Assembly: GCA_963674705.1 (NCBI GenBank)
Contig: OY771506.1
Span: 2,208,001 to 2,272,000, forward strand
Reading direction: 5' to 3'
Origin: Phycisphaeraceae bacterium
Lineage (GTDB): Bacteria; Planctomycetota; Phycisphaerae; Phycisphaerales; Phycisphaeraceae
DNA: 64,000 bases
Shown: positions 2 through 62,969 of the stretch, one piece after another
How positions within the stretch are numbered: the first letter of the stretch is position 1
Layout: each line of letters begins with the position of its first letter
Notes under the pieces: model-generated
What the model was told of the DNA's origin: nothing
The model's database searches: none
Seen by the model: the letters and a program-made list of their open reading frames with translations, nothing else
Made by a program: the position numbers and the translations under genes

Positions 2-1039
2 TGGGCGGACAAACTCGAATACGCTTTCCCGGGTAGGACCCCTAAGCCGATCGGCGTGTGCGGGCAGGTGATCCCGTGGAACTTCCCGCTGCTGATGGCC
101 GCGTGGAAACTCGCCCCCGCGCTGGCTTGCGGCAACACGGTGGTTTTGAAGCCCGCCGAGACCACGCCGCTGACCGCGCTCAAGCTCGCTGAATTGATAC
201 GTGATGCTGAATTGCCCGTGGGCGTCGTCAACATCGTCACCGGCGCGGGCGCGACCGGCGCTGCCGTTGTCAATCATCCGGACGTTGACAAGGTCGCTTT
301 CACCGGCTCGACCGAGGTCGGCAAAACGATCCTCAAATCCATCGCAGGCAGTAATAAAAAATACACGATGGAACTCGGCGGTAAAGCCGCGAACCTGATC
401 TTTGAAGATGCGCCGATCGACCAGGCTGTCGAAGGCATCATCAACGGTATCTTCTTTAATCAAGGGCACGTCTGCTGTGCGGGCTCGCGACTGTTCGTGC
501 AGGAATCCGTCGCAGACACCGTTATTCGCAAACTCAAGGACCGCATCCAAACGCTTATCGTCGGTGACCCGCTTGATAAAAACACCGACATCGGCGCGAT
601 CAACTCCAAGCCGCAGCTCGAAAAGATCGAGTACTACCTCAAGGTCGGCAAGGACGAGGGCGCAAAACTCTGGCAGCCCGATACTGCTCTTCCGACCGAA
701 GGTTTCTTCTGTAAGCCCACGCTGTTCCTTGATGCAAGCCAGTCCCACCGCATCGTGCAGGAGGAGATCTTCGGCCCGGTGCTGGCTGTGCAAACCTTCC
801 GCACGCCTGAAGAGGGCATCGCCAAAGCTAATAACACACCCTACGGCCTGTCCGGCGGCGTGTGGACCGACAAGGGCTCCAAGATATTCAAAGTCACCAA
901 CAAGATCCGGGCCGGCGTCCTCTGGGCCAACACCTACAACAAGTTCGACCCGACTTCCCCCTTCGGCGGCTACAAAGAATCCGGCATGGGCCGCGAAGGC
1001 GGATTACATGGGCTGAAGGAATATGTATCACTGAACTAA
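2..1039 (+). CDS. Aldehyde dehydrogenase (5'-truncated by window edge)
   Basis: Frame open from base 2 (WADKLEYAFPG...). Motifs IPWNFP, FTGSTEVG, ELGGK, catalytic FNQGHVCCAGSR, EEIFGP, PFGGYKESG. Confidence 0.95.
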   Translation, partial: WADKLEYAFPGRTPKPIGVCGQVIPWNFPLLMAAWKLAPALACGNTVVLKPAETTPLTALKLAELIRDAELPVGVVNIVTGAGATGAAVVNHPDVDKVAFTGSTEVGKTILKSIAGSNKKYTMELGGKAANLIFEDAPIDQAVEGIINGIFFNQGHVCCAGSRLFVQESVADTVIRKLKDRIQTLIVGDPLDKNTDIGAINSKPQLEKIEYYLKVGKDEGAKLWQPDTALPTEGFFCKPTLFLDASQSHRIVQEEIFGPVLAVQTFRTPEEGIAKANNTPYGLSGGVWTDKGSKIFKVTNKIRAGVLWANTYNKFDPTSPFGGYKESGMGREGGLHGLKEYVSLN

Positions 1040-1045
1040 GAAGAT

Positions 1046-1199
1046 ATTCACCGCAGAGAACACAGAGATCGCAGAGAAGAATCATCGGAAATAGAAACAG
1101 GGATGAACACAGATGGACACAGATAAGACATGAGACAATAGAAGTGCAGATAAGTATTGTTTTTTTTTATCCGTGTTTATCTGTGTTCATACCTGTTTC
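1046..1199. repeat. Empty tandem-armed inverted repeat (10-nt family) preceded by an orphan 9-nt-family arm
   Basis: GAAACAGGGATGAACACAGATGGACACAGATAA (1094-1126) is inverted to TTATCCGTGTTTATCTGTGTTCATACCTGTTTC (1167-1199). Extra arm ATTCACCGCAGAGAACACAGAGATCGCAGAG at 1046-1076. Confidence 0.9.
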
Positions 1200-1221
1200 A
1201 AACTGCATGAAGAGAATTGAT

Positions 1222-2130
1222 ATGAATCCCACGCAATCAGAATCTCAGACTTCCCCGGCCATCGACGCTTCACCGCGCCTTGGTGTGCTCAAGACGTACA
1301 AACTCTACATCGGCGGCAAGTTTCCGCGCACCGAGTCGGGCAGGTTTTATAAACTCACTTCAAGTTCGGGTGAGGTGCTTGCCAACATGTGTCAGGCCTC
1401 GCGCAAGGACTTTCGTGAAGCGGTCGTTGCTGCACGGGCGGCGCAGTCCGGTTGGTCGGGGGCGACGGCTTATCTTCGTGGACAGATCCTTTACCGCATC
1501 GCTGAGATGCTTGAAGGGCGGGCGAGTCAGTTCGCCACTGAGTTGATCCAGATGGGCGCCGAACCCGAGGCGGCGAGGGCCGAGGTCGCTTGTGCGATCG
1601 ATCGGTTGGTCTACTACGCGGGCTGGTGTGACAAGTATCAGCAGGTCTTCAGCAGTGTGAATCCGGTCGCATCCAGCCACTTCAACTTTTCGTTGCCCGA
1701 GCCGACGGGAGTTGTTTCCGTCATCGGGCCGGAGAAGAACGGCCTCATCGGTTTGATCTCCGTCATCGCCCCGATCATCGCTGCGGGCAATACCTGTGTC
1801 GCGCTTGCCTCGCAGAGTAAAGCCCTTTGCGCGATCACACTCGCTGAAGTATTGCACACCTCCGATTTGCCGGGTGGTGTTGTCAATCTGCTTACGGGTG
1901 ATCGTGACGAACTACTCGAACACTTCGCCTCCCACATGGATGTGAACGCCACGGTTTACTGCGGCAGCGATGCGGACCAGATCGAGCGGTTACGCACACA
2001 CGCCGCCGACAACCTCAAGCGCGTGATCACTAACAAGTGCACCGACTGGATCTCGCCCGACGCCCAGAGCCCCTACGAGATGCTCAACACCGTCGAAGTT
2101 AAAACCACCTGGCATCCGATCGGGATGTAA
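1222..2130 (+). CDS. Short aldehyde dehydrogenase-family protein (NAD-binding domain only, no catalytic Cys domain)
   Basis: KTYKLYIGGKFPRTESGR, YYAGWCDK, EPTGVV, LPGGVVNLLTG, VKTTWHPIG. The ORF-track extension to 862 runs through repeat DNA, so ATG 1222 is preferred. Confidence 0.85.
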   Translation: MNPTQSESQTSPAIDASPRLGVLKTYKLYIGGKFPRTESGRFYKLTSSSGEVLANMCQASRKDFREAVVAARAAQSGWSGATAYLRGQILYRIAEMLEGRASQFATELIQMGAEPEAARAEVACAIDRLVYYAGWCDKYQQVFSSVNPVASSHFNFSLPEPTGVVSVIGPEKNGLIGLISVIAPIIAAGNTCVALASQSKALCAITLAEVLHTSDLPGGVVNLLTGDRDELLEHFASHMDVNATVYCGSDADQIERLRTHAADNLKRVITNKCTDWISPDAQSPYEMLNTVEVKTTWHPIGM

Positions 2131-2135
2131 ATCGG

Positions 2136-2325
2136 ATTCACCGCGGAGAGCGCAGAGAACGCGGAGTAAGACAAGACATGTAACAGGGATGAACACAGAT
2201 AAGCACGGATCAGAAGATAATAGATAGTAATACTTCCGCCGCTTTAATTGTTTTCATCTGTGTCCATCCGTGTTCATCCCTGTTCCAAATTCTTCTCCGC
2301 GACCTCCGCGTCCTCTGCGGTGAAT
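2136..2325. repeat. Nested double inverted repeat (9-nt family outside, 10-nt family inside), empty
   Basis: Outer arms 2136-2166 and 2295-2325 (ATTCACCGCGGAG... / ...CTCTGCGGTGAAT). Inner arms 2182-2210 and 2256-2284 (AACAGGGATGAACAC... / ...GTGTTCATCCCTGTT). Confidence 0.92.
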
Positions 2326-2341
2326 AGATAGAATAGCCATC

Positions 2342-3178
2342 ATGACCACCAAGCTCCTGCAAGTCGGCCCGGTTTCGATCGGCCCTGGTAAACCGTTAGC
2401 CATCATCGCCGGCCCATGCCAGGCCGAGTCGCTTTCGCTTTGCATGGAAGTCGGTAAAGCCATGCGCGACCGCTGCGCTGAGCTTGGGCTTGGTTTCATC
2501 TTCAAAGCCAGTTTCGACAAAGCGAACCGCAGCTCCATCCACACCGATCGTGGCCCCGGTATCACTGCCGGCCTGGATATGCTCGCGAAGGTGCGCGATG
2601 AACTGAACATCCCGATCACCACCGACCTGCACGAACCCGATCAGGCAAAAGCGGTAGGGCAGGTCGTCGACCTGATCCAGATCCCCGCGTTCCTGTGTCG
2701 GCAGACCGACCTGCTTGTCGCCGCGGCGAACACCGGCAAGGCTGTCAACGTCAAAAAGGGCCAGTTCATGTCGCCCGCCGAGATGGGCCACGTCGTCACG
2801 AAGTTGAACGAAGCGAATGCTTCCGGGGTGATGTTGACCGAGCGCGGCACGTTCTTCGGCTACCACCGCCTCGTCAACGACTTCGCCGGGCTTTATGACA
2901 TGATGCAACTCGGCCCGCCCGTCTGTTTTGATGTCACCCACTCCACCCAGCAACCCGGTGCAGCTCCCGATGGCAAATCCACCGGCGGCCGCCCCGACAC
3001 CGCCCCGACGCTGGCGCGGTGCGCGATCGCCGCCGGCGTCCACTGCCTCTTCATCGAAACCCACCCCGAGCCGACCAAAGCCAAGTCCGACGCCGCGACG
3101 ATGCTTCCGTTGGAGCAGATGTTGGGTTTGTTGGGGGAGTTGGCTGAACTGCATCAAGTGATACAAATACCCCGCTAG
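2342..3178 (+). CDS. kdsA: 3-deoxy-8-phosphooctulonate (KDO8P) synthase, probably the metal-dependent type
   Basis: IAGPC (Cys as in metal-dependent enzymes), KASFDKANRSS, QIPAFLCRQTD, KKGQF, ERG, FDVTHS, ETHP, SD. Confidence 0.95.
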   Translation: MTTKLLQVGPVSIGPGKPLAIIAGPCQAESLSLCMEVGKAMRDRCAELGLGFIFKASFDKANRSSIHTDRGPGITAGLDMLAKVRDELNIPITTDLHEPDQAKAVGQVVDLIQIPAFLCRQTDLLVAAANTGKAVNVKKGQFMSPAEMGHVVTKLNEANASGVMLTERGTFFGYHRLVNDFAGLYDMMQLGPPVCFDVTHSTQQPGAAPDGKSTGGRPDTAPTLARCAIAAGVHCLFIETHPEPTKAKSDAATMLPLEQMLGLLGELAELHQVIQIPR

Positions 3179-3257
3179 GATGGGGGGACTTATTAGACGG
3201 GCCATCTTGGCCCGGTGGTGAGTATTTGTGTCGCAAGGCAGTAGTGAGGACTCGCAT

Positions 3258-3881
3258 ATGACCAACGACGCATTCTGGGAAATCATCGGACGAACAAAAT
3301 CGGCATCCGCCGGTGAACTCGAGGCGCAACTCGAAGCGATCAAGATCGAGCTTTCGGGTTTGCCTGAGTCAGAAGTCGTTGAGTTCGATAGGATATTCGG
3401 CGAGCTCAAGGATCGCGCTTATCACTGGGATCTCTGGGGTGCAGCTTACATCATCGGTGGTGGTTGTTCGGACGACGCTTTCATGGACTTTCGAAACTGG
3501 CTGATCTCGATGGGACGTGACGTGTATGAAAACGCGCTGGCCGACGTCGAAACCTTGGCTGATCTTGAGATCGGTGACGACTCCTTCTTCGAGGAATTAG
3601 CTTATGTGGCGAGCGAGGTCTATGAGCAGAAGACCGGCGGTGACATTCCATACTTACCGCATGACTTCCCGGTCGACCCGGTGGGCGAGCCGTGGGAAGA
3701 GAAGGGTGACGAACTTGAACGACGTTTCCCACGTCTTTGGGCGAAGTTTGTGACATCTGAACCAAAGCGTCATATAACACCCCGTCAGAATGGCGAGGCT
3801 ATAGAAAAGCCGGGCCGTTCTGGCCCATTCTCGCGGACAATTTGCGCGGTTTTCCACTGGTTAAACAAACCCTTTGAATAA
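3258..3881 (+). CDS. DUF4240-like protein
   Basis: FWEII N-terminus and WDLWGAAYIIGGGCSDDAFMDFRNWLISMG signature. Confidence 0.75.
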   Translation: MTNDAFWEIIGRTKSASAGELEAQLEAIKIELSGLPESEVVEFDRIFGELKDRAYHWDLWGAAYIIGGGCSDDAFMDFRNWLISMGRDVYENALADVETLADLEIGDDSFFEELAYVASEVYEQKTGGDIPYLPHDFPVDPVGEPWEEKGDELERRFPRLWAKFVTSEPKRHITPRQNGEAIEKPGRSGPFSRTICAVFHWLNKPFE

Positions 3882-4087
3882 CCCCGGTGGTACCGGTTTA
3901 CCTACCGTCTCCTCGCCTGATAGCAGACCACGGCAGGTTATTCAATGGCCTCACACGTCTATTCCGTCTGAAATCACGATTCTGCGGGATTTTTGGAACA
4001 TCCGCCCCATTCTCGTCGTCTTATCTATGTCTGGGCCCCTTTGGGCGATAAGATGTTGTGGATCAGTAACTCATCAGGAGCCGGCCG

Positions 4088-5977
4088 ATGAATACCGTAC
4101 ACCTTGCGATCGCCCGAACGCGTCGCCGCATCTTCGCCGATACCTGGCTGCGGACACTCGGCTGGATGGCGCTGGTCTGGGTCGGCCTAGCGGTCCTGGT
4201 GCTGGTAGCCGACAAGCTCTTTGCGCTGCGGGTCCCGGTCGATCAGGCATGGATTTACGGCAGCCTCGGCGGGATTCTTTTTATCCTCGCCCCCGTCCTC
4301 GCCTCGACACGTCAGCCAGTCGAATCCATTGCCGCCACGATGATGGACGACAGGCTTGGTCTGAAGGACAGTCTCGGCACCGCGCTCTACGCTGAATCTA
4401 TTAAGGATGACCCGTTTGCCAAACAGGTGCTGGCCGATGCCGAGCGGTTGGCATCCAAAACGCGCGTCAATGAAGCGTTTCCCATCCGGCTGGGTACGGG
4501 TTGGAGCTATGCCCTCGCCGGGGGGGCGATCTTTGCGTTGATGGCGGTATTTCTGCCGGAGGGCGATCTATTCGGGATCGAAGGGAAGCAGGAACAAAAA
4601 CAGCAGCAGCTTGCCGAGGCCGAGCAGGTCCAGCGGCAGGTGCTCGAAGCCAACGCGATCCTGCGTGAGGTCGAAACCTCCGAATCCAAACTGGTTGAAG
4701 CCAACCCGGACGATATCTACAAGGAACTGGCCTCCATCACCAAGCGTGACCTGACCAATCCTGACTTCCGTAAGGAAGCGATCACCAAGCTCGCGACCAT
4801 TCAGGAGAAGCTGGCGGTTGCTGAGAAGAACAAGAAACAGGAGATCAAGACCGCCAAGAACAATATGACCAAACTCGATCCCGGCAAGCGAGGCCCGGCC
4901 GACCGCTTCGCCGACGCCATGCGTCGCGGCGACTTCGAGCAAGCTAAAAAGGAATTGCAACGCCTCGCCGACGGCCTGCAAGGGATGCCCGAATCCGAGA
5001 AGCAAGCGCTTAAGGATCAGCTTGAGGCCATGTCCGATCAACTGGACCAAATGGCTGAGCAGCAGAAGCAGGCCCAGCAGCAGGCGCAGCAAAACATCCA
5101 GCAGCAACTGCAAAACGCAGGCCTGACTCAAAATCAGATTCAGCAACTGCAACAGCAAGGCTACAACCAGCAGGCTGTGCAGCAGGCGGTACAACAGTCC
5201 TTGCAGAATCAAGGCATGAATCAGCAGCAGGCCCAGCAACAAGCACAACAGACCGCTCAAAACGTCAGCCAGCAGCAACAGCAATCGCAGAACGCCGCCC
5301 AGTCCCAGTCACAGTGTCAGGGCATGGGCTCGGGGCTCGGTCAGATGGCATCATCCCTAGGCGGTTCGCAGCCCGGCCAAAATGGGCAGAACAGTCAAAA
5401 TAACCCGGGCCAGCAAGGCCAGTTCTCTCAAGGCGCATGGCAGGCTCAGCAGCAGCTCAACCAGCTCCAGCAGATGCAGAACCAGCTCAACCAGATGCAG
5501 AACGCCCAGCAGCAGATGCAGCAGGCGATGTCGCAGTGCCAGGGTATGGGGCAAAATCAAGGGCAGGGCATGGGGCAAAACCCGGGCCAAGGCCAAGGCA
5601 GCAATTCCGGCCAAAACCAGACCGGCAATCCAAACACCCAGAACAATAGTGTCGGCGGACGTATGGGCGGCAGCGGCGGTAACAACCAGGTTCTAGGCGT
5701 CGAACGCCAGACCGCGCCTTACAGCACATCAACCGAACAAGATATCCAGCAGGGCCAGGGCCGTGTCATCGCCAGTTGGCAGGAGAACGGCCAGATGGTG
5801 GCCGGCGAAGCGACCGTCGAATTCGACAAGACCATGACCGAGGCCCGCAACGATGCCGAACGCGCCATCACTGACGACCGCGTTCCCCGCAGGTATCACA
5901 ATGCTGTGAAAGACTACTTCCAGCAGATGCCCACGTTAGACGAAGTCCAAAAGGCCCCCGCCGCGCCACGGGGGTGA
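4088..5977 (+). CDS. Membrane-anchored coiled-coil protein with long Gln/Asn/Gly-rich low-complexity region (MoxR/VWA cluster member)
   Basis: 629-aa ORF with N-terminal hydrophobic helices, a Q-rich tract and C-terminal VPRRYHNAVKDYF. RBS CAGGAG upstream. Confidence 0.8.
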   Translation: MNTVHLAIARTRRRIFADTWLRTLGWMALVWVGLAVLVLVADKLFALRVPVDQAWIYGSLGGILFILAPVLASTRQPVESIAATMMDDRLGLKDSLGTALYAESIKDDPFAKQVLADAERLASKTRVNEAFPIRLGTGWSYALAGGAIFALMAVFLPEGDLFGIEGKQEQKQQQLAEAEQVQRQVLEANAILREVETSESKLVEANPDDIYKELASITKRDLTNPDFRKEAITKLATIQEKLAVAEKNKKQEIKTAKNNMTKLDPGKRGPADRFADAMRRGDFEQAKKELQRLADGLQGMPESEKQALKDQLEAMSDQLDQMAEQQKQAQQQAQQNIQQQLQNAGLTQNQIQQLQQQGYNQQAVQQAVQQSLQNQGMNQQQAQQQAQQTAQNVSQQQQQSQNAAQSQSQCQGMGSGLGQMASSLGGSQPGQNGQNSQNNPGQQGQFSQGAWQAQQQLNQLQQMQNQLNQMQNAQQQMQQAMSQCQGMGQNQGQGMGQNPGQGQGSNSGQNQTGNPNTQNNSVGGRMGGSGGNNQVLGVERQTAPYSTSTEQDIQQGQGRVIASWQENGQMVAGEATVEFDKTMTEARNDAERAITDDRVPRRYHNAVKDYFQQMPTLDEVQKAPAAPRG

Positions 5978-6185
5978 TCTCGGGTATCGGTATTCGGGTC
6001 TCGGGTCTTGCAACAGGGGACACAATCATTCTGGGTAACGAATCTGTGATAAGAGAGAAAAAGATGTTTGGTGCGGTAAGTCAGCACATATCCCAAAGCA
6101 CGTGTATGACTTGCTCATATGACATACGATGGGGTAACGAAAGTCGTAACCCGATACCCGAAACCCGAAACCCGAATCCCGATCA
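5975..6185. repeat. Empty inverted repeat with 7-nt tandem arms (TCGGGTN / ACCCGAA)
   Basis: Left arm TGATCTCGGGTATCGGTATTCGGGTCTCGGGT (5975-6006, begins with the stop codon). Right arm ACCCGATACCCGAAACCCGAAACCCGAATCCCGATCA (6149-6185) directly precedes the GTG start. Confidence 0.85.
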
Positions 6186-9100
6186 GTGAACTTCATCCGT
6201 TTCGATCAACCCGAGTACCTTTGGCTGCTGCTTTTGGCGGTGCCGATTGCCTGGCTTGGGATGCGCAGCCTTGCGGCGCTTGAGCCGGCCCGGCGGTGGA
6301 CCGCGATCGTACTGCGGCTGCTGGTGCTCGCCGTCCTGGTTCTCATGCTCGCCGGCCTGCAGGCGGTTCAGACGCATGACGACCTGACCGTCATCGCGGT
6401 GATGGATCAATCCGAATCCGTACGCCGATTCGCCAAGCCGCCGACCGAACTCAACGGCACGGAAGATGATGTAAACGACATCAGCCAGTGGGCACGTGAA
6501 TACCTCAAGCAGACTGCGGCCGACCGGCGCGATGGCGATCAACTCGGGCTCGTGACTTACGACGGCAAATCCAGCGTCCGCTCGCTACCCAGCGAAGCGA
6601 CCGACCTCGACACCGGCACGATCGATCAGCCCAACGAAGGCACCGACACCGCCAGCGCGATCCGCTCCGGCATGGCTTTGTTCCCGCCGGATTCAGGCCA
6701 GCGCATGGTCCTGTTTTCCGATGGCAACGACACTTCGGGCGACGTCATCGCCGCAGCACAGGAAGCTGCTGCCGCGGGTATCCGCATCGACGTGTTGCCC
6801 GCACCGTACCAGGTCGAGCATGAGGTCATGGTTGAGCGTTTGATCGCTCCCAATGAAGCTCGCGAAGGCCAGACCGTTCCCGTCCGTGTCGTCCTGCGTG
6901 CCACTCGACCGGCCGACGGCTTCATCCAGCTATCGCACGATGATGTGTTCATCGACCTAAATGGCGCACTGGAAGGCACAGGCGCACCGGTCTACAAGTC
7001 CGACTGGACGCTTGAAGAGACCAGTCAGACGGAAAACTCAACCGATGATCCAACGGTAGAAGATACGAACACCGTCGACGAACCCATGCTCGGTAAATAC
7101 ATCACCGTCCGCGAAGTGGACGTGCCGATGGGATTCACCGGCGTCAACAAGTTCCGCGCGATCTTCGAGACATCCGATGAAGACGACACGATGCAGATCA
7201 ACAACCAGGCCGAGGCGTTCACGCTTGTCTCCGGCAAGGGGCGCATCCTCTTTGTAGATAACGTCGGCGGCGAGTCGGGCAGCATCCTCCCACGCGCTCT
7301 TGCCAGCCGGGGTATCGAGATGGACGTCGTCGGCCCGGAGGGCGTACCCATCTCACTCGATCGGATGCAGCGTTACGACGCGATCATCCTCCAGAACGTG
7401 CCTTACGACCAGGTCATCGCACAGCAGCGCCTGATGGCCAAGTACGTGCATGATCTTGGTGGCGGCCTGATTATGCTCGGCGGGCCCGACAGCTTCGGTG
7501 CAGGCGGCTGGACCAATTCCGAAATCGATAAATACATCCTTCCGGTCAGTTGTCAGATCCCCTCGCAGACGATCCTGCCTTCCGGCGCATTGGCGCTGGT
7601 AATCGACCGTTCCGGCTCTATGGCCGCACCCGTCGGCGGCACAATGCGAACGCAGCAGGAGCTTGCCAATGAGGCGGCCGTCCTCGCGCTGAACACGCTG
7701 TATCCGCAAGACCTGATCTGTGTGATCGCGTTTGACGGAAGCGCTCACATGATCGTCAAAACGCAGCCAAACACCGACCCCGTCGCCGTCGCCAAGAAAG
7801 TACGCAGCATCCAGCCCGGCGGCGGCACGGAAAGTTACTACGGCCTGGAGATGGCCTATAAGGAACTGGCGCCCCTGACCGTGCAGGATGCCGCCGTCAA
7901 GCATGTCATCATGCTGACGGATGGTATGAGCGGCGAATCCATCACCGGCGGGTACGTCAAAATGCTCGGCTTGATGAACAAGCAAGGCATCACACTTTCC
8001 ACCATCGGTGTCGGTGATGGGCACAACTCTCAACTACTTAAACAATTGGCCAGCATGGGAAGCGGTAACTACCACCCCATCACCAACCCTTCAAACCTGC
8101 CGCAGGTCTTCATTAAAGAAGCCAAGACCATCCGCAAGAACCTGGTTAAAGAAAACCCATTTACCCCGACGGTGCAACCTACCGGCTCGCCGATCATGGC
8201 AAGCATCAGCAGCGTTCCTGAACTGCGCGGCCTGGTGTTGACCGGCGAAAAACACGACCCGCGCATCCTCATGCCCATGGTCGGACCCGAAGGTGAACCT
8301 GTATTCGCACACTGGCAGGTCGGCCTCGGACGTAGCGCCGCGTTCACCTCCGATGCGACCAACCGCTGGGCCACGCAATGGCTATCGTGGGGCGGCTACC
8401 CCGACTTCTGGGCACGCACCGTCCGCAGCATCGCGCGCCCAAGCGCCTCGCGCGATACCGACCTGATCGTGGGCATCAGCGATGGGCAATTGAATATCCA
8501 ACTCGATGCCGCGTTCGAATCCTCGCAAACAACCGGCAACCGCAGGCAACGTGCCGGCAGCTTCGGCAACTTCCTCGACGTTAAAGGCAGCGTTCTCAAG
8601 CCTGATGGCACCGTCGAACAGGTCGCGCTCGATCAGATCGGCCCGGGCCAGTACCGTGCAAACGTCCCCGCCGGCCAGACCGGCAACTACGTCGTCAGTC
8701 TCTTCATCGAATCGCCCGATGGATCTAGGCGTGCTGTCTTTGGCGGCGCGGGTAAACCGCCCGGCGAAGAGTTGCGCCGCTTCAAATCCAACAACGCCGT
8801 CCTCGAACGCATCGCCGAAATCACCAACGGTCGCGTCCTCGACCCGACCCAGCCCCAGACCGCAGGCCTCTTCGAACGCAACGTGCCTTTTGAAACACGT
8901 TCGATCCGCCCGCTTTGGCGCACGTTGTTGCTTTGGCTGGTCATCTTCTTCATGCTCGATGTCGCCTGCCGCCGCATCGCTTGGGATCCAGTCGCCATCT
9001 GGGAGTGGAGCAAGCAGCGTGTCGATTCGCTGCTTGGCACACTCAAGCCGCGCGAGGTCGAAGTAGAGACCACCCTCGCCGCGCTAAAGAACCGTCAGGC

Positions 9101-9401
9101 ACAAACCGAACAACAACTCGCCGATCGTGCAGCGGGTGTGCGCCTGACCAAGGTCGCAAGCGAACCCGCCGTCCCCGCACCGTCTACCAAGCGCAAGTTT
9201 GAAGCATCCGAGGACTTCGTCGCTTCCAGCAACTTTGCCGAATCCGTAGGCGGCGCGACCGACAACCCGAATTCAGCTTACGCATTGAATGACAAGCAAT
9301 CCGATGGCGACACGGCCGAAGGCGAAGGCATGACCACCAGCCGCCTCCTCGCCGCCAGGCGTCGCGCCCGGGAGCAGATGAATGATGAGAAAGGCAAATA
9401 G
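6186..9401 (+). CDS. Large membrane protein with two VWA domains and a glutamine-amidotransferase-like domain
   Basis: MIDAS-like DQSES and DRSGSM, SDG/TDG motifs, GGGLIMLGGPDSFGAGGW, N- and C-terminal TM segments. Confidence 0.85.
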   Translation: MNFIRFDQPEYLWLLLLAVPIAWLGMRSLAALEPARRWTAIVLRLLVLAVLVLMLAGLQAVQTHDDLTVIAVMDQSESVRRFAKPPTELNGTEDDVNDISQWAREYLKQTAADRRDGDQLGLVTYDGKSSVRSLPSEATDLDTGTIDQPNEGTDTASAIRSGMALFPPDSGQRMVLFSDGNDTSGDVIAAAQEAAAAGIRIDVLPAPYQVEHEVMVERLIAPNEAREGQTVPVRVVLRATRPADGFIQLSHDDVFIDLNGALEGTGAPVYKSDWTLEETSQTENSTDDPTVEDTNTVDEPMLGKYITVREVDVPMGFTGVNKFRAIFETSDEDDTMQINNQAEAFTLVSGKGRILFVDNVGGESGSILPRALASRGIEMDVVGPEGVPISLDRMQRYDAIILQNVPYDQVIAQQRLMAKYVHDLGGGLIMLGGPDSFGAGGWTNSEIDKYILPVSCQIPSQTILPSGALALVIDRSGSMAAPVGGTMRTQQELANEAAVLALNTLYPQDLICVIAFDGSAHMIVKTQPNTDPVAVAKKVRSIQPGGGTESYYGLEMAYKELAPLTVQDAAVKHVIMLTDGMSGESITGGYVKMLGLMNKQGITLSTIGVGDGHNSQLLKQLASMGSGNYHPITNPSNLPQVFIKEAKTIRKNLVKENPFTPTVQPTGSPIMASISSVPELRGLVLTGEKHDPRILMPMVGPEGEPVFAHWQVGLGRSAAFTSDATNRWATQWLSWGGYPDFWARTVRSIARPSASRDTDLIVGISDGQLNIQLDAAFESSQTTGNRRQRAGSFGNFLDVKGSVLKPDGTVEQVALDQIGPGQYRANVPAGQTGNYVVSLFIESPDGSRRAVFGGAGKPPGEELRRFKSNNAVLERIAEITNGRVLDPTQPQTAGLFERNVPFETRSIRPLWRTLLLWLVIFFMLDVACRRIAWDPVAIWEWSKQRVDSLLGTLKPREVEVETTLAALKNRQAQTEQQLADRAAGVRLTKVASEPAVPAPSTKRKFEASEDFVASSNFAESVGGATDNPNSAYALNDKQSDGDTAEGEGMTTSRLLAARRRAREQMNDEKGK

Positions 9402-9847
9402 CCACCGATGAACACAGATGAACACAGATTGGATGCGGGGGCTGTGGTTGACCATGATGCGTTGACTGAACGCATTATTGGTTGCGCGATGGCTGTGAGC
9501 AATAGTCTGGGGGTGGGTTTTCTGGAGAAGGTGTACGAGAACGCCTTGGTTTTGGAATTGCGTGCGGATGGCTTGAGTGTTAACCAGCAAACGCCGGTAC
9601 ATGTGTGGTATCGCGATGAAGTGGTAGGGGACTTTGTTGCGGACTTGATTGTAGAGAACAAGGTATTGATTGAATTAAAACACTCGGATGGTATCCACCC
9701 GGTTCATGTCGCACAATGTCTCAACTACCTGCAAGCCACAAAACACAAAACCTGCCTTCTCTTAAACTTTGGCACAACTAAACTGGGCATCAAACGTATA
9801 TCACTATAAACCTCTTATCTGTGTTTATCAGTGTTCATCGGTGGCTA
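9399..9847. mobile_element. Putative hairpin cassette: 10-nt-family inverted arms enclosing a GxxExxY gene
   Basis: TAGCCACCGATGAACACAGATGAACACAGAT (9399-9429) vs ATCTGTGTTTATCAGTGTTCATCGGTGGCTA (9817-9847), 29/31 complementary. Cargo is AT-richer than the flanking genes. Mobility is inferred. Confidence 0.6.
9408..9809 (+). CDS. GxxExxY protein (PD-(D/E)xK nuclease superfamily)
   Basis: LGVGFLEKVYENAL, ADLIVENKVLIELK, QCLNYL, LLNFG. Confidence 0.92.
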   Translation: MNTDEHRLDAGAVVDHDALTERIIGCAMAVSNSLGVGFLEKVYENALVLELRADGLSVNQQTPVHVWYRDEVVGDFVADLIVENKVLIELKHSDGIHPVHVAQCLNYLQATKHKTCLLLNFGTTKLGIKRISL

Positions 9848-9873
9848 AATTCTGCCACAAGGAGTGAATAATC

Positions 9874-10911
9874 ATGACCGTTAATACCAACGACGAGCAG
9901 CAGGTCCTTGAGCAGGCCGATGCATTCCGTAAAGACTACCAGGCTGTGCGCGAGCAGATAGCACGCTGGATCGTCGGCCATGGCGACATCATCGACGGCG
10001 TCCTGACCTGCCTGTTCGTCGGCGGACACGCGCTGCTCGAAGGTGTGCCCGGCCTCGGTAAAACGCTGTTGATCCGAAGCCTCAGCCAGGCGTTGTCGCT
10101 GGACTTCAGCCGTATCCAGTTCACGCCCGACCTCATGCCCGCCGACATCACCGGCACGACGATCGTCGTCGAGTCGCGCAATGAGGATGGCACGACCTCG
10201 CGCGTGTTCAAATTCCAGCACGGCCCGATCTTCGCTCAGATCGTGCTGGCTGACGAAGTCAACCGCGCGACACCCAAGACGCAGTCTGCCATGCTCGAAG
10301 CGATGCAGGAAAAAGCCGTCACTGTGGCCGGTGAAACCTACACGCTGCAAAAGCCCTTCTTTGTCATGGCAACACAGAACCCCATCGAGCAGGAAGGCAC
10401 ATACCCGCTGCCTGAAGCCCAACTCGACCGTTTCCTGCTCAAACTCGATGTCGGCTACTCTACCCGTGAAGAACTGCACGAAATCGCCAACCGCACCACA
10501 CGCGCTGAAGAACCCGTCATCGAGCCTGTGCTCGATGCTGCGAAGATCATCAACTATCAGAAGCTTATTCGCCGCGTCATCATCGCCCCGCACGTTCAGG
10601 ATTATGCGATCCGCGCTGTCCTCGCGACGCATCCGGACGGTGAATTTGCCGGCAAACTGACCAAACAGTTCCTGCGCTTCGGCGGCTCCCCCCGTGCCGT
10701 GCAGGCCCTTGTTCTCGGCGGAAAAGTCAGAGCGATGTTAGATGGCCGCGCCCACGTGTCTGTAGATGACATCAGAGCCATCATGCTCCCGGCGCTTAGA
10801 CACCGCGTCCTTCTGAACTTCGAAGGCCAAGCCGAAGGCATCACGCCGGACATGGTTCTGAACGACATCATCGACACACTGCCCGTGGAAGCCGAAGGCG
10901 TGCCGGTGTAG
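9874..10911 (+). CDS. moxR: MoxR-family AAA+ ATPase
   Basis: GVPGLGKT, RIQFTPDLMPADITG, LADEVNRATPKTQSAMLEAMQE, ATQNPIEQEGTYPLPEAQLDRF. Confidence 0.95.
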   Translation: MTVNTNDEQQVLEQADAFRKDYQAVREQIARWIVGHGDIIDGVLTCLFVGGHALLEGVPGLGKTLLIRSLSQALSLDFSRIQFTPDLMPADITGTTIVVESRNEDGTTSRVFKFQHGPIFAQIVLADEVNRATPKTQSAMLEAMQEKAVTVAGETYTLQKPFFVMATQNPIEQEGTYPLPEAQLDRFLLKLDVGYSTREELHEIANRTTRAEEPVIEPVLDAAKIINYQKLIRRVIIAPHVQDYAIRAVLATHPDGEFAGKLTKQFLRFGGSPRAVQALVLGGKVRAMLDGRAHVSVDDIRAIMLPALRHRVLLNFEGQAEGITPDMVLNDIIDTLPVEAEGVPV

Positions 10912-10913
10912 GG

Positions 10914-11393
10914 AATGCACGAATGGCGAATGCTCGAATGTCGAAAGAATGACAAATGACGGAATGACAAATGAACGAGCGCTCGTATGACCTAGAGGAA
11001 CGAACAGCCAGGTTTGGTGAAAATATTATTGCCTTTGCCAAACGTGTAACGCTAAATGAGATAACGCGTCCCATTGTTGGGCAACTGGTACGATCTGGGA
11101 CGAGTGTGGGAGCTAATTACTGCGAGGCCGACGATGCGGAAACCAAAAAGGACTTTCGGCACAAGATCGCCATCTGCAAGAAGGAGTCCAGAGAAACAAA
11201 ACATTGGTTGCGTATGATTGTCACAGCAGAGCCTGTGTTGCGTGACGAAGCAAAAATATTATGGCAAGAAGCAAAAGAACTAAATTTGATCTTTGCATCC
11301 ATTCGCAACAGCACCGGAAGGCGATGAATGTGTCATTTGACATTGAATCATTCGACATTCTTTCGACATTCGAGCATTCATCATTCGTGCATT
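10914..11393. mobile_element. Putative hairpin cassette: ~60-bp GAATG-type tandem arms enclosing a four-helix-bundle gene
   Basis: Left arm AATGCACGAATGGCGAATGCTCGAATGTCGAAAGAATGACAAATGAC... (10914-10974) is complementary to ...CATTCTTTCGACATTCGAGCATTCATCATTCGTGCATT (11333-11393). Mobility is inferred. Confidence 0.6.
10971..11327 (+). CDS. Four-helix-bundle protein (23S rRNA intervening-sequence protein / TIGR02436-like)
   Basis: DLEERT, QLVRSGTSVGANYCEA, SKKDF-like TKKDFRHKIAICKKESRETKHWL, EAKEL. Confidence 0.9.
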   Translation: MNERSYDLEERTARFGENIIAFAKRVTLNEITRPIVGQLVRSGTSVGANYCEADDAETKKDFRHKIAICKKESRETKHWLRMIVTAEPVLRDEAKILWQEAKELNLIFASIRNSTGRR

Positions 11394-11398
11394 AACTT

Positions 11399-12328
11399 AT
11401 GACCACCCTCAACTCCCAACCCGCCAAGCAGGACTCGCTCCTCGACCCCGCGTTCATGCATCGGCTTGATCGGCTGGATGTCATGTCGCGCAAGGTGCTG
11501 ACGGGCAAGATGCAGGGCGAGCGACGGAGCAAGAAGAAGGGGCAGAGTGTTGAGTTCGCGGACTATCGCAGTTACGTGATCGGCGACGATCTGCGGTTTA
11601 TCGACTGGAACCTCTATGCCAGGCTCGACAAACTTTTCTTACGCCTGTTTATGGAAGAGGAAGACCTGTCGGTGTCCGTCGTGCTGGATGTCACCGCTAG
11701 CATGGATTACGGCGATCCGAACAAGCTGCTCTATGCCAAGCGCGTCGCTGCGGCGTTGGGGTACATCGGACTGACGCATTACAACCGGGTGAACCTCTAC
11801 ACCTTTGCAGACACGATCACGGACATGGCCCAGGGCATGCGCGGCCGCCGACCCATCCCGCGCATGCTCGAGTTCCTGCAGATGCAGCAGCCCATCTCCG
11901 GCGAAGCTGCCAGCGGGAACCTTGCCAACGCATGCAAACGTCTCGCACTCGTCCAGCGACAGCCCGGCGTCATCATCATGCTCAGCGACTTTTTCGATAA
12001 GGGCGATCTCAACGAAGCCCTGCGTTACCTCGGCGGCGAGAAGCACGACGTCTACGCGATCCAACTGCTCTCCCCGCAAGAAGTCGACCCAGCTAAGGGC
12101 AACGTTCTCGGCGACCTGCGCCTTCGCGACATCGAGGACGGCGACATCGCCGAAGTCTCTGTGAGCCCGGCCCTGCTCAAACGATACAAAGCCAACCTCC
12201 AGGCTTACTGCCAGTTCGTCCGCGAACAGTGCCTGAAGCGCGGCGTCGCCTACATGATCAGCGAAACCGACGTGCCGTTTGATACGTTGGTGTTGAAGTA
12301 CTTACGTCAACGGGGATTGTTGGGATAA
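11399..12328 (+). CDS. DUF58-domain protein (MoxR-associated)
   Basis: GQSVEFADYRSYVIGDDLRFIDWNLYAR, LDVTASM, LSDFF. Confidence 0.92.
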   Translation: MTTLNSQPAKQDSLLDPAFMHRLDRLDVMSRKVLTGKMQGERRSKKKGQSVEFADYRSYVIGDDLRFIDWNLYARLDKLFLRLFMEEEDLSVSVVLDVTASMDYGDPNKLLYAKRVAAALGYIGLTHYNRVNLYTFADTITDMAQGMRGRRPIPRMLEFLQMQQPISGEAASGNLANACKRLALVQRQPGVIIMLSDFFDKGDLNEALRYLGGEKHDVYAIQLLSPQEVDPAKGNVLGDLRLRDIEDGDIAEVSVSPALLKRYKANLQAYCQFVREQCLKRGVAYMISETDVPFDTLVLKYLRQRGLLG

Positions 12329-12334
12329 GGATAT

Positions 12335-12796
12335 TGGAACAGGGATGAACACAGATAAACACGGATAAGATGAAGCGGGGGTATGTGTGGATCAATATCA
12401 TGAAATGACTGAGCAGATAATTGGTTGTGCGTATCGTGTCAGCAATACATTGGGATGTGGTTTTCTTGAGAAGGTATATGAAAATGCGTTGGTCTATGAG
12501 TTGAGTGAGTCAGAGCTTAAAGTTAGCCAGCAACAATCCATAGAAGTGAATTACGCGGCAATCGTTGTTGGGCACTACATTGCCGACATCGTGGTTGAAG
12601 AAAAAGTCATTATCGAGATAAAAGTGGCCAGTAAATTGGATGAAGTCCATGCAGCACAAACCATCAACTACCTTAAGGCGACCGGTTATCCGGTTGCACT
12701 TTTACTTAACTTCGGCAAACCAAAAATTGAGATCAGGCGTTTTGTCAACAAGTTCTAATTCTTTATCCGTGTCCATCCGTGTTCATCCCTGTTCCA
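12335..12796. mobile_element. Putative hairpin cassette: 10-nt-family inverted arms enclosing a second GxxExxY gene
   Basis: TGGAACAGGGATGAACACAGATAAACACGGATAA (12335-12368) vs TTATCCGTGTCCATCCGTGTTCATCCCTGTTCCA (12763-12796), 31/34 complementary. Confidence 0.6.
12387..12758 (+). CDS. GxxExxY protein (PD-(D/E)xK nuclease superfamily)
   Basis: LGCGFLEKVYENAL, ADIVVEEKVIIEIK, QTINYLKAT, LLNFG. Confidence 0.92.
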   Translation: MDQYHEMTEQIIGCAYRVSNTLGCGFLEKVYENALVYELSESELKVSQQQSIEVNYAAIVVGHYIADIVVEEKVIIEIKVASKLDEVHAAQTINYLKATGYPVALLLNFGKPKIEIRRFVNKF

Positions 12797-12811
12797 TAAA
12801 TTGACTCAAAA

Positions 12812-14842
12812 ATGAACTTCATCTCACCAGGCATGGCACTTCTAGCAGCGGGCATCACCGTGCCGCTGTTGGTGTCGCTGTACTTTCTTAAGCTCCGTCG
12901 TCGGTTGATGCCTGTTTCATCGACGCTGCTATGGAAGAAGGCGATCCAGGACATGCAGGTGAACTCGCCGTTCCAGAAGATGCGGCGGAGTTTGTTGTTG
13001 CTGTTACAGTTGTTAATCCTGGCGGCGCTGCTCTTCGCGATGGCGCGGCCGACGATGGAGACGGTCGCCAATCCCGGGCAGCGAGTCGTCATCCTGATCG
13101 ATAACTCCGGATCGATGAACGCTACCGACGTCTCGCCCACACGACTCGATGAAGCCAAGAAGGCAGCGCTTGAGCTGATCAACAGCCTCGATGCCAGCGG
13201 ATCGAATGGCAACGACACAACTTCCGGCGGGGCGATGGTTGTCAGCTTCGCGCAAAGTTCGCAAGTCCGCCAGTCGTTCACGAACGATCCGTCACTATTG
13301 CGCGACGCGATCAGAAGGATCGAGCCGACGGACCACGTCAGCCGTCTTGAGCCGGCGCTGCGTTTGATCGAACCTTTTGCCGGCAAAGCCGCGCAGGATG
13401 ATACCGAGGGACTCGTCGTCTACATCATCAGCGACGGCCGGGTGCGCGACGATGGCCGGGTCCTGTCACTTGCCGGTGCGACGCTTAAATACATCCCCAT
13501 CGGTGGTGGTCCTGCGGGTAACGCCGGCGCTGCTGATCCTGACAACGTCGGTATCGTCTCCTTCAGCGCACGGCGAGACTTCGACAAACCCGAGATCGTT
13601 CAGATCTTCGCCAAGGTCGCCAACTACGGAAACAAACAGGTCAAAACCAACCTCACCCTCTCGCTCGATGGCAACCCCACCCGCGTCCAGCCCATCACCC
13701 TCGGTCCCGCGCCGCAAGTCGATACCGAATCATCGACCGAGTCCACGAGCAACAGCCACGAAACCTCCGTCCAGTTTGACTTCGTCCTGCCCGGCACAGC
13801 GCTCGTTGAGTTGGCGCATGACTATGAAGATCAACTGCCTGCCGACGACGCCGTCCGTTTGACGCTCGCACCTGCCCGACGTCTGCGTGTCCTGCTCGTG
13901 ACCGAAGGCAATGCGTTTCTGGCCAAAGGCATCCAAAGTGCAGGCGTGCGTCAGCTTGCGATATGGACGCCCGACAAGTTCGAGAATCAGGACCCCGAAT
14001 CTCTTAGCCGAGGTGGTTGGGAAGACGCGGGCACATCCGGCCTGGCAGGTGAAGGCTTCGACGTCATCGTCTTCGATCACTACAGCCCAAAGACGATCCC
14101 GCTGGTGGACAGCCTTTACTTCGCTGCTGCGCCACCGTTCGACGACATCAAGCGCATCGCACCGGATGAGCAATCCAACGCCCCGTCCGAGCGCATCCTC
14201 TATTGGGAGCGCACCCATCCTCTGCTGCGTTACGTCTCGCTCGAAGATGTGATCCTTTCCGACCCGGGCCGGCTTGAAGTTTCGCCGCAGGCCACCACGT
14301 TAGTGACCGGCCAGTCCGGACCGATCATGGCCGAAGTCGTCAGGGATGGCGTACGCCACGTTGTCGCCAGCTTCGACCTGCTGCAAACCAACTGGCCGAT
14401 CAAGATCAGCTTCCCTGTCTTCCTCGGCAACACCGTCCAAACCCTCGGCCTCGGCGGGCTCAGCGAAGGCGCAGGCGTCGCTTACCGCACCGGTGAAGTC
14501 GTTTCCATCCCCGCCGATTCGGATGTCACCTACACCGGCCCTGCTACACTCACCGTCCGCCGCACCCAAGGCGCAGCGGTTCTTCCCCCGTTCCCGCTTG
14601 CCGGCGTTTACACCACGACCGACACGATACAGCCGCCATTTGATCGGCTGGGAGTGAACCTGCTCGATCCGCAGGAAAGCGACCTGCGCACCATGGATGT
14701 ACTTAACGTCAGAACCACGGATGCCGATACTGCCGTGCAAACCGCCAGCATCCGCCGCGAGGTCTGGCAGTGGTTCATCTGGGCCGCCCTCGCTGTGATG
14801 CTCATCGAATGGCTGATCTACACCCGCCGCATGCATATCTGA
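12812..14842 (+). CDS. BatA-type N-terminal domain + VWA domain membrane protein
   Basis: LYFLKLRRR...VSSTLLW, LLLLLQLL...ARP, DNSGSM MIDAS, SDG, C-terminal WQWF...EW. Confidence 0.88.
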   Translation: MNFISPGMALLAAGITVPLLVSLYFLKLRRRLMPVSSTLLWKKAIQDMQVNSPFQKMRRSLLLLLQLLILAALLFAMARPTMETVANPGQRVVILIDNSGSMNATDVSPTRLDEAKKAALELINSLDASGSNGNDTTSGGAMVVSFAQSSQVRQSFTNDPSLLRDAIRRIEPTDHVSRLEPALRLIEPFAGKAAQDDTEGLVVYIISDGRVRDDGRVLSLAGATLKYIPIGGGPAGNAGAADPDNVGIVSFSARRDFDKPEIVQIFAKVANYGNKQVKTNLTLSLDGNPTRVQPITLGPAPQVDTESSTESTSNSHETSVQFDFVLPGTALVELAHDYEDQLPADDAVRLTLAPARRLRVLLVTEGNAFLAKGIQSAGVRQLAIWTPDKFENQDPESLSRGGWEDAGTSGLAGEGFDVIVFDHYSPKTIPLVDSLYFAAAPPFDDIKRIAPDEQSNAPSERILYWERTHPLLRYVSLEDVILSDPGRLEVSPQATTLVTGQSGPIMAEVVRDGVRHVVASFDLLQTNWPIKISFPVFLGNTVQTLGLGGLSEGAGVAYRTGEVVSIPADSDVTYTGPATLTVRRTQGAAVLPPFPLAGVYTTTDTIQPPFDRLGVNLLDPQESDLRTMDVLNVRTTDADTAVQTASIRREVWQWFIWAALAVMLIEWLIYTRRMHI

Positions 14843-14883
14843 TCAACTGCATCGAGCACAAACGATTGATCCTGATAGACAAC

Positions 14884-14907
14884 AGCCCCACGCGGAAGCG
14901 TGGGGTT
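14884..14907. terminator. Short palindromic hairpin between convergent genes
   Basis: AGCCCCACGC-GGAA-GCGTGGGGTT. Confidence 0.5.
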
Positions 14908-14941
14908 CAATGTTCGTATCAACTATTCAGATAACAATCGC

Positions 14942-15415
14942 TCAATGCTCGGCCGGTGGATCCTCAAATTCACCCACCAGGTCGAGTTGCACGCGGTTGA
15001 CCTTGAAACCCGTGCGGGTTTGCAGCTCAGTAAGCAGGTTGTCGGGGATATGTTCGAGGATGCGTTTACCCAGATCATCGGGCACATCGGTGATCTGCCC
15101 TGTCCTGTCGCATCGCAGGTGCAGGTGGTCTTCACGTCCGGCGTCATACCGTGTTGACCCGTTGCCGCAGCAGCCCGTGATCTTGAATGCCAATCCGGCA
15201 TTGCACAGCGCTTCGAGCGTGTTGTACACCGTCGCCAGGCTCAGTTTGTCGTCCCTAGCCTTGACCATCTTGTACAGTTCGTCGGCCGTCGGATGCGAGT
15301 GGCACGACGATAACGCGCGATAAATCGCTCGGCGTTGTCGGGTGCAACGTAGGCCGTGTTCCGCGAATGCTGCTTGCAGGTTTTCTGACATGTCTGAGTG
15401 GTGATTCGCAGTCAT
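14942..15415 (-). CDS. Fur/PerR-family transcriptional repressor (start may be 15391)
   Basis: GLRCTRQR, HPTADELY, SLATVYNTL, RYD...HLHLRC. Confidence 0.9.
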   Translation of the reverse strand: MTANHHSDMSENLQAAFAEHGLRCTRQRRAIYRALSSCHSHPTADELYKMVKARDDKLSLATVYNTLEALCNAGLAFKITGCCGNGSTRYDAGREDHLHLRCDRTGQITDVPDDLGKRILEHIPDNLLTELQTRTGFKVNRVQLDLVGEFEDPPAEH

Positions 15416-42420: not shown

Positions 42421-42961
42421 TTCACCACAGAGGGCGAGGAGGAATATAAGATGGAACTCGGATGGATCGGATACAAACGGATAACAAGCTGGAAGAGGGG
42501 AAAAGGGTAATCACATGCGACCCAATGCAACGCATTCTTTATTAGCCGCGTTGCCACGCAACGCGGGCAGTCGCTTCACACGTGCTCAATTCCGGTCCCT
42601 TCTCCCCGCGCAACATATTCGATCTACGCTGTAACCGCATAAACAAGAAGGCAATTAGCCACAGATAAACACAGATGAACACAGATGAACACGGATCAGA
42701 AAAGAGCCTGTTTTGAATATCTTGATCAAAATGCTTGTTTTAGCTTTTTAAACCGTGATGAATCTGATGCTACAGAGATTCTCATGTTTTGCATCTGTGT
42801 TCATCCGTGTTCATCTGTGGCTAAACATAGTCTGGATACATGCTTCGAGCATAGATCGAATATGTTGCAAGAGGAGAGGGAGTCAACTCAACAAAATCTG
42901 TGTAATCACCGCAATCTGCGGATACTTCTTTTTCCATCCGCTTGCATCCGATGCATCCGAG
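42421..42961. repeat. Multi-layer nested inverted-repeat region
   Basis: Pairs 42457-42482/42936-42961, 42610-42626/42852-42868 (perfect 17 bp) and 42655-42696/42793-42824. Orphan arms at 42421 and 42895-42930. REP at 42543-42566. Confidence 0.9.
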
Positions 42962-43261: not shown

Positions 43262-43529
43262 AACCACAGAGACTCAGAGACACAGAGAAATGCATTTTAA
43301 CAGGGATGAACACAGATAAACACAGATAAGAGGAAACAAGAAGTATCCGCAGATTTCGCAGACTTCACAGATTCATAAGTTAAAGCATTCTTCTTAATCT
43401 GCGCAATCGCTGTAATCTGCGGATACTACTTCTGCTTCTTTTTACCTCTTATCCGTGTTCATCTGTGTTCATCCCTGTTCCAATTCGCCTTTCTCCGCAT
43501 CCGTATGCATCCGCACCCATCCGCGTTCC
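43262..43529. repeat. Nested inverted repeats (10-nt family around CGCAGATT family) with orphan arms
   Basis: Pairs 43299-43333/43445-43479 and 43338-43373/43396-43431. Orphan arms at 43262-43287 and 43499-43529. Confidence 0.9.
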
Positions 43530-62791: not shown

Positions 62792-62969
62792 ACCACAGAG
62801 GCACAGAGATCACAGAGAAGAGTTTATTTAACAGGGATGAACACAGATAAACACGGATACACGATGTATAGGAAAAGCATTTGAAATGCCTGCTTCCTCG
62901 CATCTGTGTTAATCCGTGTTTATCCCTGTTCCCAATTGCCTTTCTCTGTGTTCTCTGTGCCTCTGTGGT
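62792..62969. repeat. Nested double inverted repeat (CACAGAG family outside, 10-nt family inside), empty
   Basis: Outer arms 62792-62819/62942-62969 (27/28 complementary). Inner arms 62830-62858/62902-62930. Confidence 0.92.

Follow-up and report, generated by a model that had tools for sequence, protein, structure and literature searches.

The operon and its junctions

We describe here a class of inverted repeats, some of them enclosing a small gene, that occupy every junction of a five-gene MoxR operon in a Phycisphaeraceae bacterium (GenBank assembly GCA_963674705.1). The operon lies in a 64,000-nucleotide stretch of contig OY771506.1 (positions 2,208,001 to 2,272,000, forward strand), which we call the window and whose coordinates are used unless a genome label is given. 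G000 is the genome that holds the window, labels of the type G003 to G040 are its relatives, and L numbers are single loci. On the plus strand, the operon encodes a Gln-rich protein of 629 amino acids without a family match (gene A, 4088 to 5977), a VWA-domain membrane protein of 1071 amino acids (6186 to 9401), a MoxR AAA ATPase (9874 to 10911), a DUF58 protein (11399 to 12328), and a BatA/VWA protein of 676 amino acids (12812 to 14842). Named loci with a MoxR protein of 80% identity point to a Phycisphaerae planctomycete as the probable host.

The four junctions, J1 to J4 in gene order, each hold an inverted repeat of short tandem words that begins 0 to 6 nt from the upstream stop codon. J1 (5975 to 6185) is gene-less, with arms of 7-bp words and a 24-nt core (75%); its outer end is the stop codon of gene A, and its repeat is weaker than those of J2 to J4. 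The same word also flanks an intact four-helix-bundle (FHB) gene elsewhere in the genome (G000:1196552). The J2 cassette (9399 to 9847) has three 10-bp words in each arm (9399 to 9429 and 9817 to 9847, 94% complementary), and the stop codon of the VWA gene forms the first 3 bases of the left arm. It encloses gx1 (9408 to 9809, plus strand), a gene for a GxxExxY protein of the PD-(D/E)xK type (TIGR04256/PF13366) whose earliest possible start lies inside that arm. In J3 (10914 to 11393), arms of 7-bp words (10914 to 10974 and 11333 to 11393, 87% complementary) enclose a plus-strand FHB gene (TIGR02436/PF05635, 10971 to 11327), the product of which matches PDB entry 2rld (E value, 4e-15). J4 (12335 to 12796) again has three 10-bp words per arm (12335 to 12368 and 12763 to 12796, 91% complementary) around gx2 (12387 to 12758, plus strand), which encodes a GxxExxY protein (TIGR04256/PF13366) with a restriction-endonuclease-like fold.

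A preliminary description of this locus held that such repeats fill all four junctions and that their cargo is AT-rich, co-oriented with the host genes, and nearly as long as the loop. Our analysis bears this out: two intact GxxExxY genes, one FHB gene, and one empty element are present, cargo genes have 41 to 47% GC versus 59 to 61% for host genes, and all run with the operon and almost fill their loops. Long stems are predicted on both strands of J1 to J4 (z, -3.7 to -8.9; 25 dinucleotide shuffles each), and the fold of J1 was matched by none of 200 shuffles. The operon contains the only run of four element-bearing junctions in the genome, which is also the longest (P = 0.02, permutation of 3872 junctions), and three of the eight armed cargo genes of G000 are located in it. 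No transposase gene occurs within the operon (14 Y1-transposase matches lie elsewhere in the genome), Rfam gave no match for positions 900 to 15000, and a promoter and terminator scan found nothing clearly above shuffles.

A family of elements in the genome

The junctions of the MoxR operon belong to a much larger set. Using our own simple gene caller, we scanned 3150 junctions of 30 to 1500 nt in G000 and found an inverted repeat with a score of at least 30 in 333 of them, versus 0 of 500 shuffles. Unsupervised clustering yielded element families without curated names; 13 of these were picked as periodic by their period column and comprise 184 elements, 44 of which lie in runs of at least two (17 expected). 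Profile matches in G000 amount to three GxxExxY and six FHB genes, eight of the nine being armed and co-directional with both neighbors, so that 176 elements carry neither gene. The main 10-bp family has 175 arms, of which 133 are paired and 42 solo; none faces outward, and 2 lie in long genes. Arms are sharply conserved and loops are unique. A cargo-protein remnant was found in none of the 86 gene-less loops of at least 40 nt, and the idea that these loops once held cargo genes since deleted was rejected.

Further gene-less elements with 10-bp words lie in the window at 1045 to 1202 (with an extra unpaired outer arm), 42654 to 42825, and 62826 to 62934. Elsewhere in G000, an armed GxxExxY gene between groEL and dnaJ (G000:C1:2957915-2958265) has an in-frame stop near its start, and a divergent FHB gene (G000:C1:3224184-3224501) has no arms and is possibly domesticated. 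Several nonperiodic REP-like families and the Y1-transposase matches coexist with the word-arm families, and the Y1 match at G000 3512733 is flanked by nonperiodic arms. A link between DUF559 and one nonperiodic family was dropped, as G000 has no DUF559 match.

Association of arms with two protein families

Flanking arms (score of at least 30) are the rule around both cargo families. After exclusion of loci at contig ends (6 of 79 GxxExxY and 8 of 80 FHB), arms were present at 59 of 73 GxxExxY loci and 65 of 72 FHB loci. When the windows were displaced by 800 nt, the corresponding counts were 1 of 134 and 0 of 136, a weak control because the displaced windows are probably mostly coding DNA. 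The GxxExxY query included an arm-encoded peptide; among loci matching only the core, 20 of 28 have arms, as do 36 of 40 GxxExxY genes of relatives picked by hidden Markov model (40 of 76 matches, mostly by score). Broad enrichment of inverted repeats around the two families and co-orientation of cargo with host genes both support the preliminary description. A same-strand stop codon lies within 150 nt upstream of the arm at 35 of 52 and 56 of 64 loci.

The arm word tracks the clade of the cargo protein. When 84 arms chosen for their resemblance to the J2 arm are aligned, three 10-bp words are seen across phyla. On the GxxExxY protein tree (all protein trees here are quick trees), the 10-bp arm label needs 2 changes, versus 8.5 when shuffled (0 of 500), and arm period needs 15 changes versus 27 (13 of 49 rows unlabelled). 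Arm abundance also goes with the gene. Among the matches listed for 40 genomes related to one another (at most 150 each), 15 of the 16 relatives with at least six 10-bp arms have a GxxExxY gene, the exception being a 66% complete genome, and 14 of the 15 relatives without the gene have at most one such arm. An atlas search matched GxxExxY clusters only. At two loci, L085 (1154 to 1581) and L086 (1944 to 2203), arms are repeated in tandem with a 112-nt period beside GxxExxY genes.

The same junctions in relatives

From 40 relatives we recovered 20 MoxR loci, and junctions could be compared in 17. J1 is identical in G004, has heptamer arms of other words in G009, G008, G010, G006, and G019, and is represented in four other genera by 9 to 71 nt without a hairpin. 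At J2, four congeners have a 49-nt empty allele and G009 has a different gene-less hairpin, while G004 has the first 19 nt of the G000 left arm followed by the hairpin seen in G009. One contig of run X6 extends across the J2 cassette itself, and the database relatives closest to gx1 (L062 and L063) are found at this junction too. J3, which holds the FHB gene in G000, has a GxxExxY gene of another clade within other arms in G004 and G009, gene-less hairpins of related words in G010, G005, and G019, and a 30-nt empty allele in G008. J4 holds a GxxExxY gene of the same clade in G004, G003, G008, and G009, one of another clade in G019, an unrelated 113-amino-acid open reading frame (ORF) without a Pfam match inside such arms in G010, and only 29 nt (empty) in G005. 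Six FHB relatives from Tepidisphaerales/Phycisphaerales occupy the J4 position, and a second exchange of FHB for GxxExxY is seen between G000 and G009 at the flhB-flhA junction.

Full, degenerate, and empty alleles therefore occur at one orthologous site in the cases of J2, J3, and J4. The GxxExxY cassette at J3 of G004, which is ~93% identical to G000 at the DNA level, together with the empty alleles of congeners, indicates that junction content turns over. GxxExxY genes also lie directly 3' of paralogous MoxR genes (G030:C1:765377, G039:C1:1189201, and G013:C1:131368; two of them in another family), so that MoxR operons are recurrent sites.

These comparisons support the earlier proposal of units without a transposase that sit at gene boundaries and are gained and lost among relatives; what we did not find is the same cargo at the same sites, inherited vertically and without arms. 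The view of the elements as small mobile or selfish units needs qualification. They are transposase-free and they turn over, but most are gene-less (176 of 184), and the gene-bearing ones are long-lived residents, maintained by purifying selection, rather than recent invaders.

Replacement and concentric nesting

G000 and G004 were compared over 1.6 of 5.8 Mb. Among 868 orthologous junctions, 72 have a periodic element in either genome, and a length change of more than 40 nt occurred at 20 of these versus 44 of 479 plain junctions of at least 80 nt (p = 4e-5). The alignments viewed show replacements, nesting, and putative insertion sequence (IS) insertions into loops; at G000 352151, 374321, 1344874, and 1758792, G004 retains the outer arms but has different content between them. 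Elements thus change mostly by replacement and nesting. Neither a clean insertion nor a target-site duplication was seen in these alignments, which contained no clean empty/filled pair. Two further candidates were rejected. Joints in assembled contigs that skip the J2 or J4 loop had been considered as excision, but their sides are ~23 to 31 nt long and their inserts short and unrelated, so that we attribute them to paralogous gene-less elements. A fixed cut point had been considered because two truncated arms stop at an identical base; across the 42 solo arms, however, there is no sharp drop.

At G000:C1:1315900 and its G004 ortholog (L226), tandem heptamer arrays of similar length occupy the same position but consist of different words. 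In the G004 orthologs of G000 239736 and 1687867 (L243 and L047), candidate IS-like insertions lie in the loops of word-arm hairpins or beside such hairpins. Across the operon (4088 to 14842, compared with L001), kilobase tracts with ~0% and 8% divergence from G004 alternate, which indicates recent homologous recombination between the two species.

Nesting is concentric and ordered. Scored with 13 reference arms from gene-bearing cassettes, 24 junctions of G000 contain 26 concentric pairs and no side-by-side pair, and 22 of the 26 are centered within 8 nt. The order is never reversed: arms of 8- or 9-bp words are outermost, followed by two 10-bp types, and innermost is a further GxxExxY type or J3-type FHB arms. 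For the innermost GxxExxY type, 10 of 13 pairs share their junction with 10-bp arms. Two gene-less examples lie in the window, one with 9-bp-word arms outside and 10-bp-word arms inside (2135 to 2325) and one with 10-bp-word arms outside and the arms of another GxxExxY clade inside (43295 to 43483). The order may reflect a targeting rule or a record of successive invasions.

One could regard the gene-less hairpins as passive relics, each left by the decay of a cassette that once bore a gene and had come in through horizontal transfer and ordinary homologous recombination, with nothing acting in trans. The mosaic structure of G000 and G004, the full, gene-less, and empty states of J3 with related arm words, the solo arms, and the fact that some arm words of G000 belong to clades whose genes are found only in congeners would all fit such decay. 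Against this, gene-less loops lack cargo remnants, arms are sharply conserved although loops are unique, nesting is ordered and centered, and arm abundance is tied to gene presence. We consider passive decay quite improbable.

DNA sites or RNA stems

The preliminary description assumed that the arms matter because they fold out of the mRNA as a long stem. In its developed form, this explanation treats the cassettes as mRNA intervening sequences: pairing of the arms in the transcript forms a stem that draws the upstream stop close to the downstream start, RNase III may cut out the loop, and an Avd-like FHB protein handles the RNA, possibly with retro-mobility. It draws on the strong folding of J1 to J4, the position of elements downstream of stop codons and their scarcity at divergent junctions, and the presence of one reverse transcriptase in G000. 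The 23S rRNA intervening sequence (IVS) of Coxiella contains the same gene along with heptamer repeats, has a terminal stem of 28 bp, and is excised by RNase III (PMC4990558), and PF05635 is reported to resemble Avd (PMC10053308).

The substitution pattern in the arms points elsewhere. Where an RNA stem is under selection, G·U is tolerated on the transcribed strand and A·C is not, and the terminator-like hairpins of G000, our control, are strongly biased in this way (G·U:A·C, 68:11). In the arms, the sense-strand ratio is 137:128 (82 elements) and 52:42 (48 elements) and, across phyla, 59:55 and 65:62 (the ratios 52:42 and 65:62 being those of heptamer arms); in a fixed register it is 81:87. 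A G·U excess on the sense strand is therefore absent from all four data sets and from the fixed register. The reverse strand folds about equally well, and wobble positions in the largest subfamily (28 pairs) show no covariation (0.717 versus 0.694, p = 0.1). The part of the proposal that concerns an mRNA stem is accordingly not upheld, as the arms can fold but bear no mark of it, and RNA-stem selection on the arms is rejected by the G·U test. We consider the intervening-sequence explanation as a whole unlikely.

Given the missing wobble covariation and the fact that the best family match of an arm is its own partner in only 13 of 177 cases, each arm appears to follow the word consensus, as inverted protein-binding sites do. 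RNA folding and cutting of the arms may occur beside this. The same 13 of 177 led us to reject homogenization of arms within an element by template switching. At wobble columns 23 and 29 of the 10-bp arm model, an element's two arms are unalike more often than expected by chance (0.22 versus 0.36 and 0.35 versus 0.47, respectively), perhaps through selection against perfect palindromes. Nonperiodic REP-like arms have an A·C excess on the sense strand (G·U:A·C, 53:83; p = 0.013).

Cargo proteins

The assignment of GxxExxY proteins to the PD-(D/E)xK superfamily is supported by a restriction-endonuclease-like fold and by conserved acidic and Lys residues. The gx2 model (pLDDT, 95) has Cas4 SSO0001, lambda-type exonucleases, and Hjc as nearest folds, with a best Z score of 8.6; for Cas4 SSO0001, the Foldseek E value is 3e-4, the VIA Z score 8.5, and the root mean square deviation 2.9 over 99 residues. 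A Z score of this middling size indicates the predicted fold and not the function. Among 54 homologs, E28, E32, D67, E77, and Q91 are invariant and K79 and Y95 are at least 90% conserved; the Gln-x3-Tyr residues we take to be a RecB/Cas4-type motif.

The J4 gene is a long-term resident under purifying selection. Its copies in five congeners form one clade (SH-aLRT, 92), the topology of which differs from that of the V2 host tree. The ratio of nonsynonymous to synonymous divergence (dN/dS) is 0.06 to 0.19 in four of six pairs, the other two being saturated, and dS is 1.6 to 2.1 versus 0.7 to 0.8 for DUF58 in the same three genome pairs. Other clades likewise keep to home junctions, one of them upstream of a glutamine amidotransferase gene in four congeners. 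Such long residence, the scarcity of recent copies, and the argument that RAYTs were domesticated in this way (PMC5581495) raise the prospect of a domesticated host system, in which the genes are kept for host benefit (defense, DNA repair, or tuning of operon expression by arm binding) and the arms serve in regulation, not as the ends of a mobile unit. This is hard to reconcile with the replacement of one protein family by an unrelated one at J3, J4, and flhB-flhA, with common empty alleles and the G000 copy with an in-frame stop, with host neighbors that are functionally unrelated, and with concentric nesting of no obvious regulatory use. We regard domestication as improbable.

Proposed mechanism

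The cassettes are likely mobile elements, and the small proteins encoded in them likely recognize the arms as sites in DNA. Our preferred reading, held tentatively and at somewhat less than an even chance, is a DNA-level exchange of cassettes that is started by GxxExxY proteins at arms read by protein and that serves gene-less arm pairs in trans. It builds on the observed cassette architecture, on junction content that changes between relatives, on nesting in one order, on arm words that go with protein clades, on catalytic residues left intact, and on purifying selection; binding, cutting, movement, and the FHB role are what we infer. Each GxxExxY clade would bind its three helically phased words of 8 to 10 bp on both arms. 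Its cut would fall in the arms, immediately inside them, or at a cruciform that has been extruded, and repair by the host would then copy in another arm-bounded unit, giving replacement or nesting without target duplication. Gene-less arm pairs would be nonautonomous units served in trans, as REPINs are by RAYTs, and gene-bearing copies would persist at home junctions just past a stop codon, where host transcription would express the cargo. The FHB protein, with no known catalytic activity, might bind heptamer arms and borrow a nuclease, which is the weakest step.

Several results weigh against this exchange reading. At 39 of the 72 element junctions, G000 and G004 keep the same family, and none of the junction alignments viewed contained a clean empty/filled pair with exact boundaries. 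Flanks of at least 98% identity occur at 7 of 39 shared elements and 159 of 738 plain junctions; near-identical flanks are thus not enriched at shared elements, there is no homing-type co-conversion signal, and flank co-conversion, considered because of ~0% divergence around J1 and J4, was rejected. Full-length copies at 85% identity or more exist for only 4 of 184 elements, which gives no sign of recent replication. As an arm is physically linked to its gene, the clustering of arm labels on the protein tree follows from co-inheritance alone. The survey of arm abundance covers related genomes (the 40 relatives), and 10 of the 25 relatives with a GxxExxY match over the cutoff have at most three 10-bp arms, several of them having other words. 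Elements avoid divergent junctions (12 of 553 versus 172 of 2597 others, p = 1e-5), and this avoidance, together with stop-codon proximity, is what an RNA-level role would also predict. Finally, across subfamilies, the two arms of one element share letters or subfamily (0.663 versus 0.561, 72 pairs).

A broader version of the exchange reading is more doubtful, although we think it possible. GxxExxY proteins would be the enzymes of an undescribed, cross-phylum, transposase-free cassette exchange. Each clade would read its own triple word and, following a fixed hierarchy, insert its unit centrally into the hairpins of other clades; much as a dispersed integron does, it could also carry unrelated genes between its arms. 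The FHB branch of this exchange would comprise the rRNA intervening sequences that bear ORFs and the heptamer repeats of bacteria. If true, this would assign a function to GxxExxY and the "23S IVS" four-helix bundle, both very large orphan families, would account for unexplained heptamer and decamer repeats between genes and for how rRNA intervening sequences with ORFs arose, and would add an ~120-amino-acid nuclease with natural clade-specific target words. The pairings of arm and clade are direct substrates with built-in negative controls, and the junctions of this operon are available as natural alleles in the full, swapped, gene-less, and empty states.

Relation to known systems

Elsewhere, PF13366 is listed as of unknown function with multiple transfers (PMC3424549), and IVP genes are located inside cas operons (PMC3936711; see also 10.1101/2024.02.27.582315 and 10.1101/2021.01.26.428298). 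In searches of an open-access library we found no description of this architecture, and subscription papers and supplements may bear on this.

The arrays of heptamer repeats in Xanthomonas and Nostoc resemble our elements in that they are often convergent pairs, lie between aligned ORFs and near stops, and are scarce between divergent genes (PMC4692102). They differ in being described as quadruplex-forming at stable loci, and the portions of PMC4692102 cited here make no link to a flanked gene. The 23S rRNA IVS of Coxiella and Leptospira shares terminal inverted repeats around an FHB ORF (as in J3 only), heptamers before the ORF, lower GC, and patchy distribution (PMC4990558). In contrast, the elements studied here lie between protein genes, number many per genome, and in two of the three gene-bearing cassettes carry GxxExxY, and their arms lack the mismatch signature of a selected RNA stem (52:42 and 65:62 versus 68:11 in the control). 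The rRNA IVS may represent one landing site of a wider class.

With the elements described here we found full, degenerate, and empty alleles, terminal inverted repeats, and a nuclease fold. Homing endonuclease elements and miniature transposable elements with inverted repeats (MITEs) likewise have terminal inverted repeats, a nuclease fold, and, at a single site, full, degenerate, and empty alleles. Our elements differ from them: an intron or intein is lacking, the flanks give no co-conversion signal, target duplication was not seen, and near-identical copies are almost absent.

The closest parallel is with RAYTs and REPINs, where few gene copies flanked by inverted motifs coexist with many gene-less inverted doublets in extragenic space, spacers vary, and the gene has a long vertical residence (PMC3116915, PMC5581495), as the J4 clade does in five congeners. 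The inward-facing extragenic doublets of the main 10-bp family match this pattern. However, the flanked genes here are PF13366 or PF05635 genes rather than a HUH Y1 transposase, each arm consists of direct words in tandem, which pair with those of the other arm, and is not a small palindrome, and the elements nest in a fixed order; compensatory covariation, reported to be common in REPINs (PMC3116915, PMC5581495), was not found. The locus contributes swaps of one protein family for another while the junction stays the same, nesting that keeps one order, and data that speak against selection for an RNA stem. We conclude that these elements are real and widespread; they fall short of every known family considered on a defining test and work most like RAYT/REPIN.

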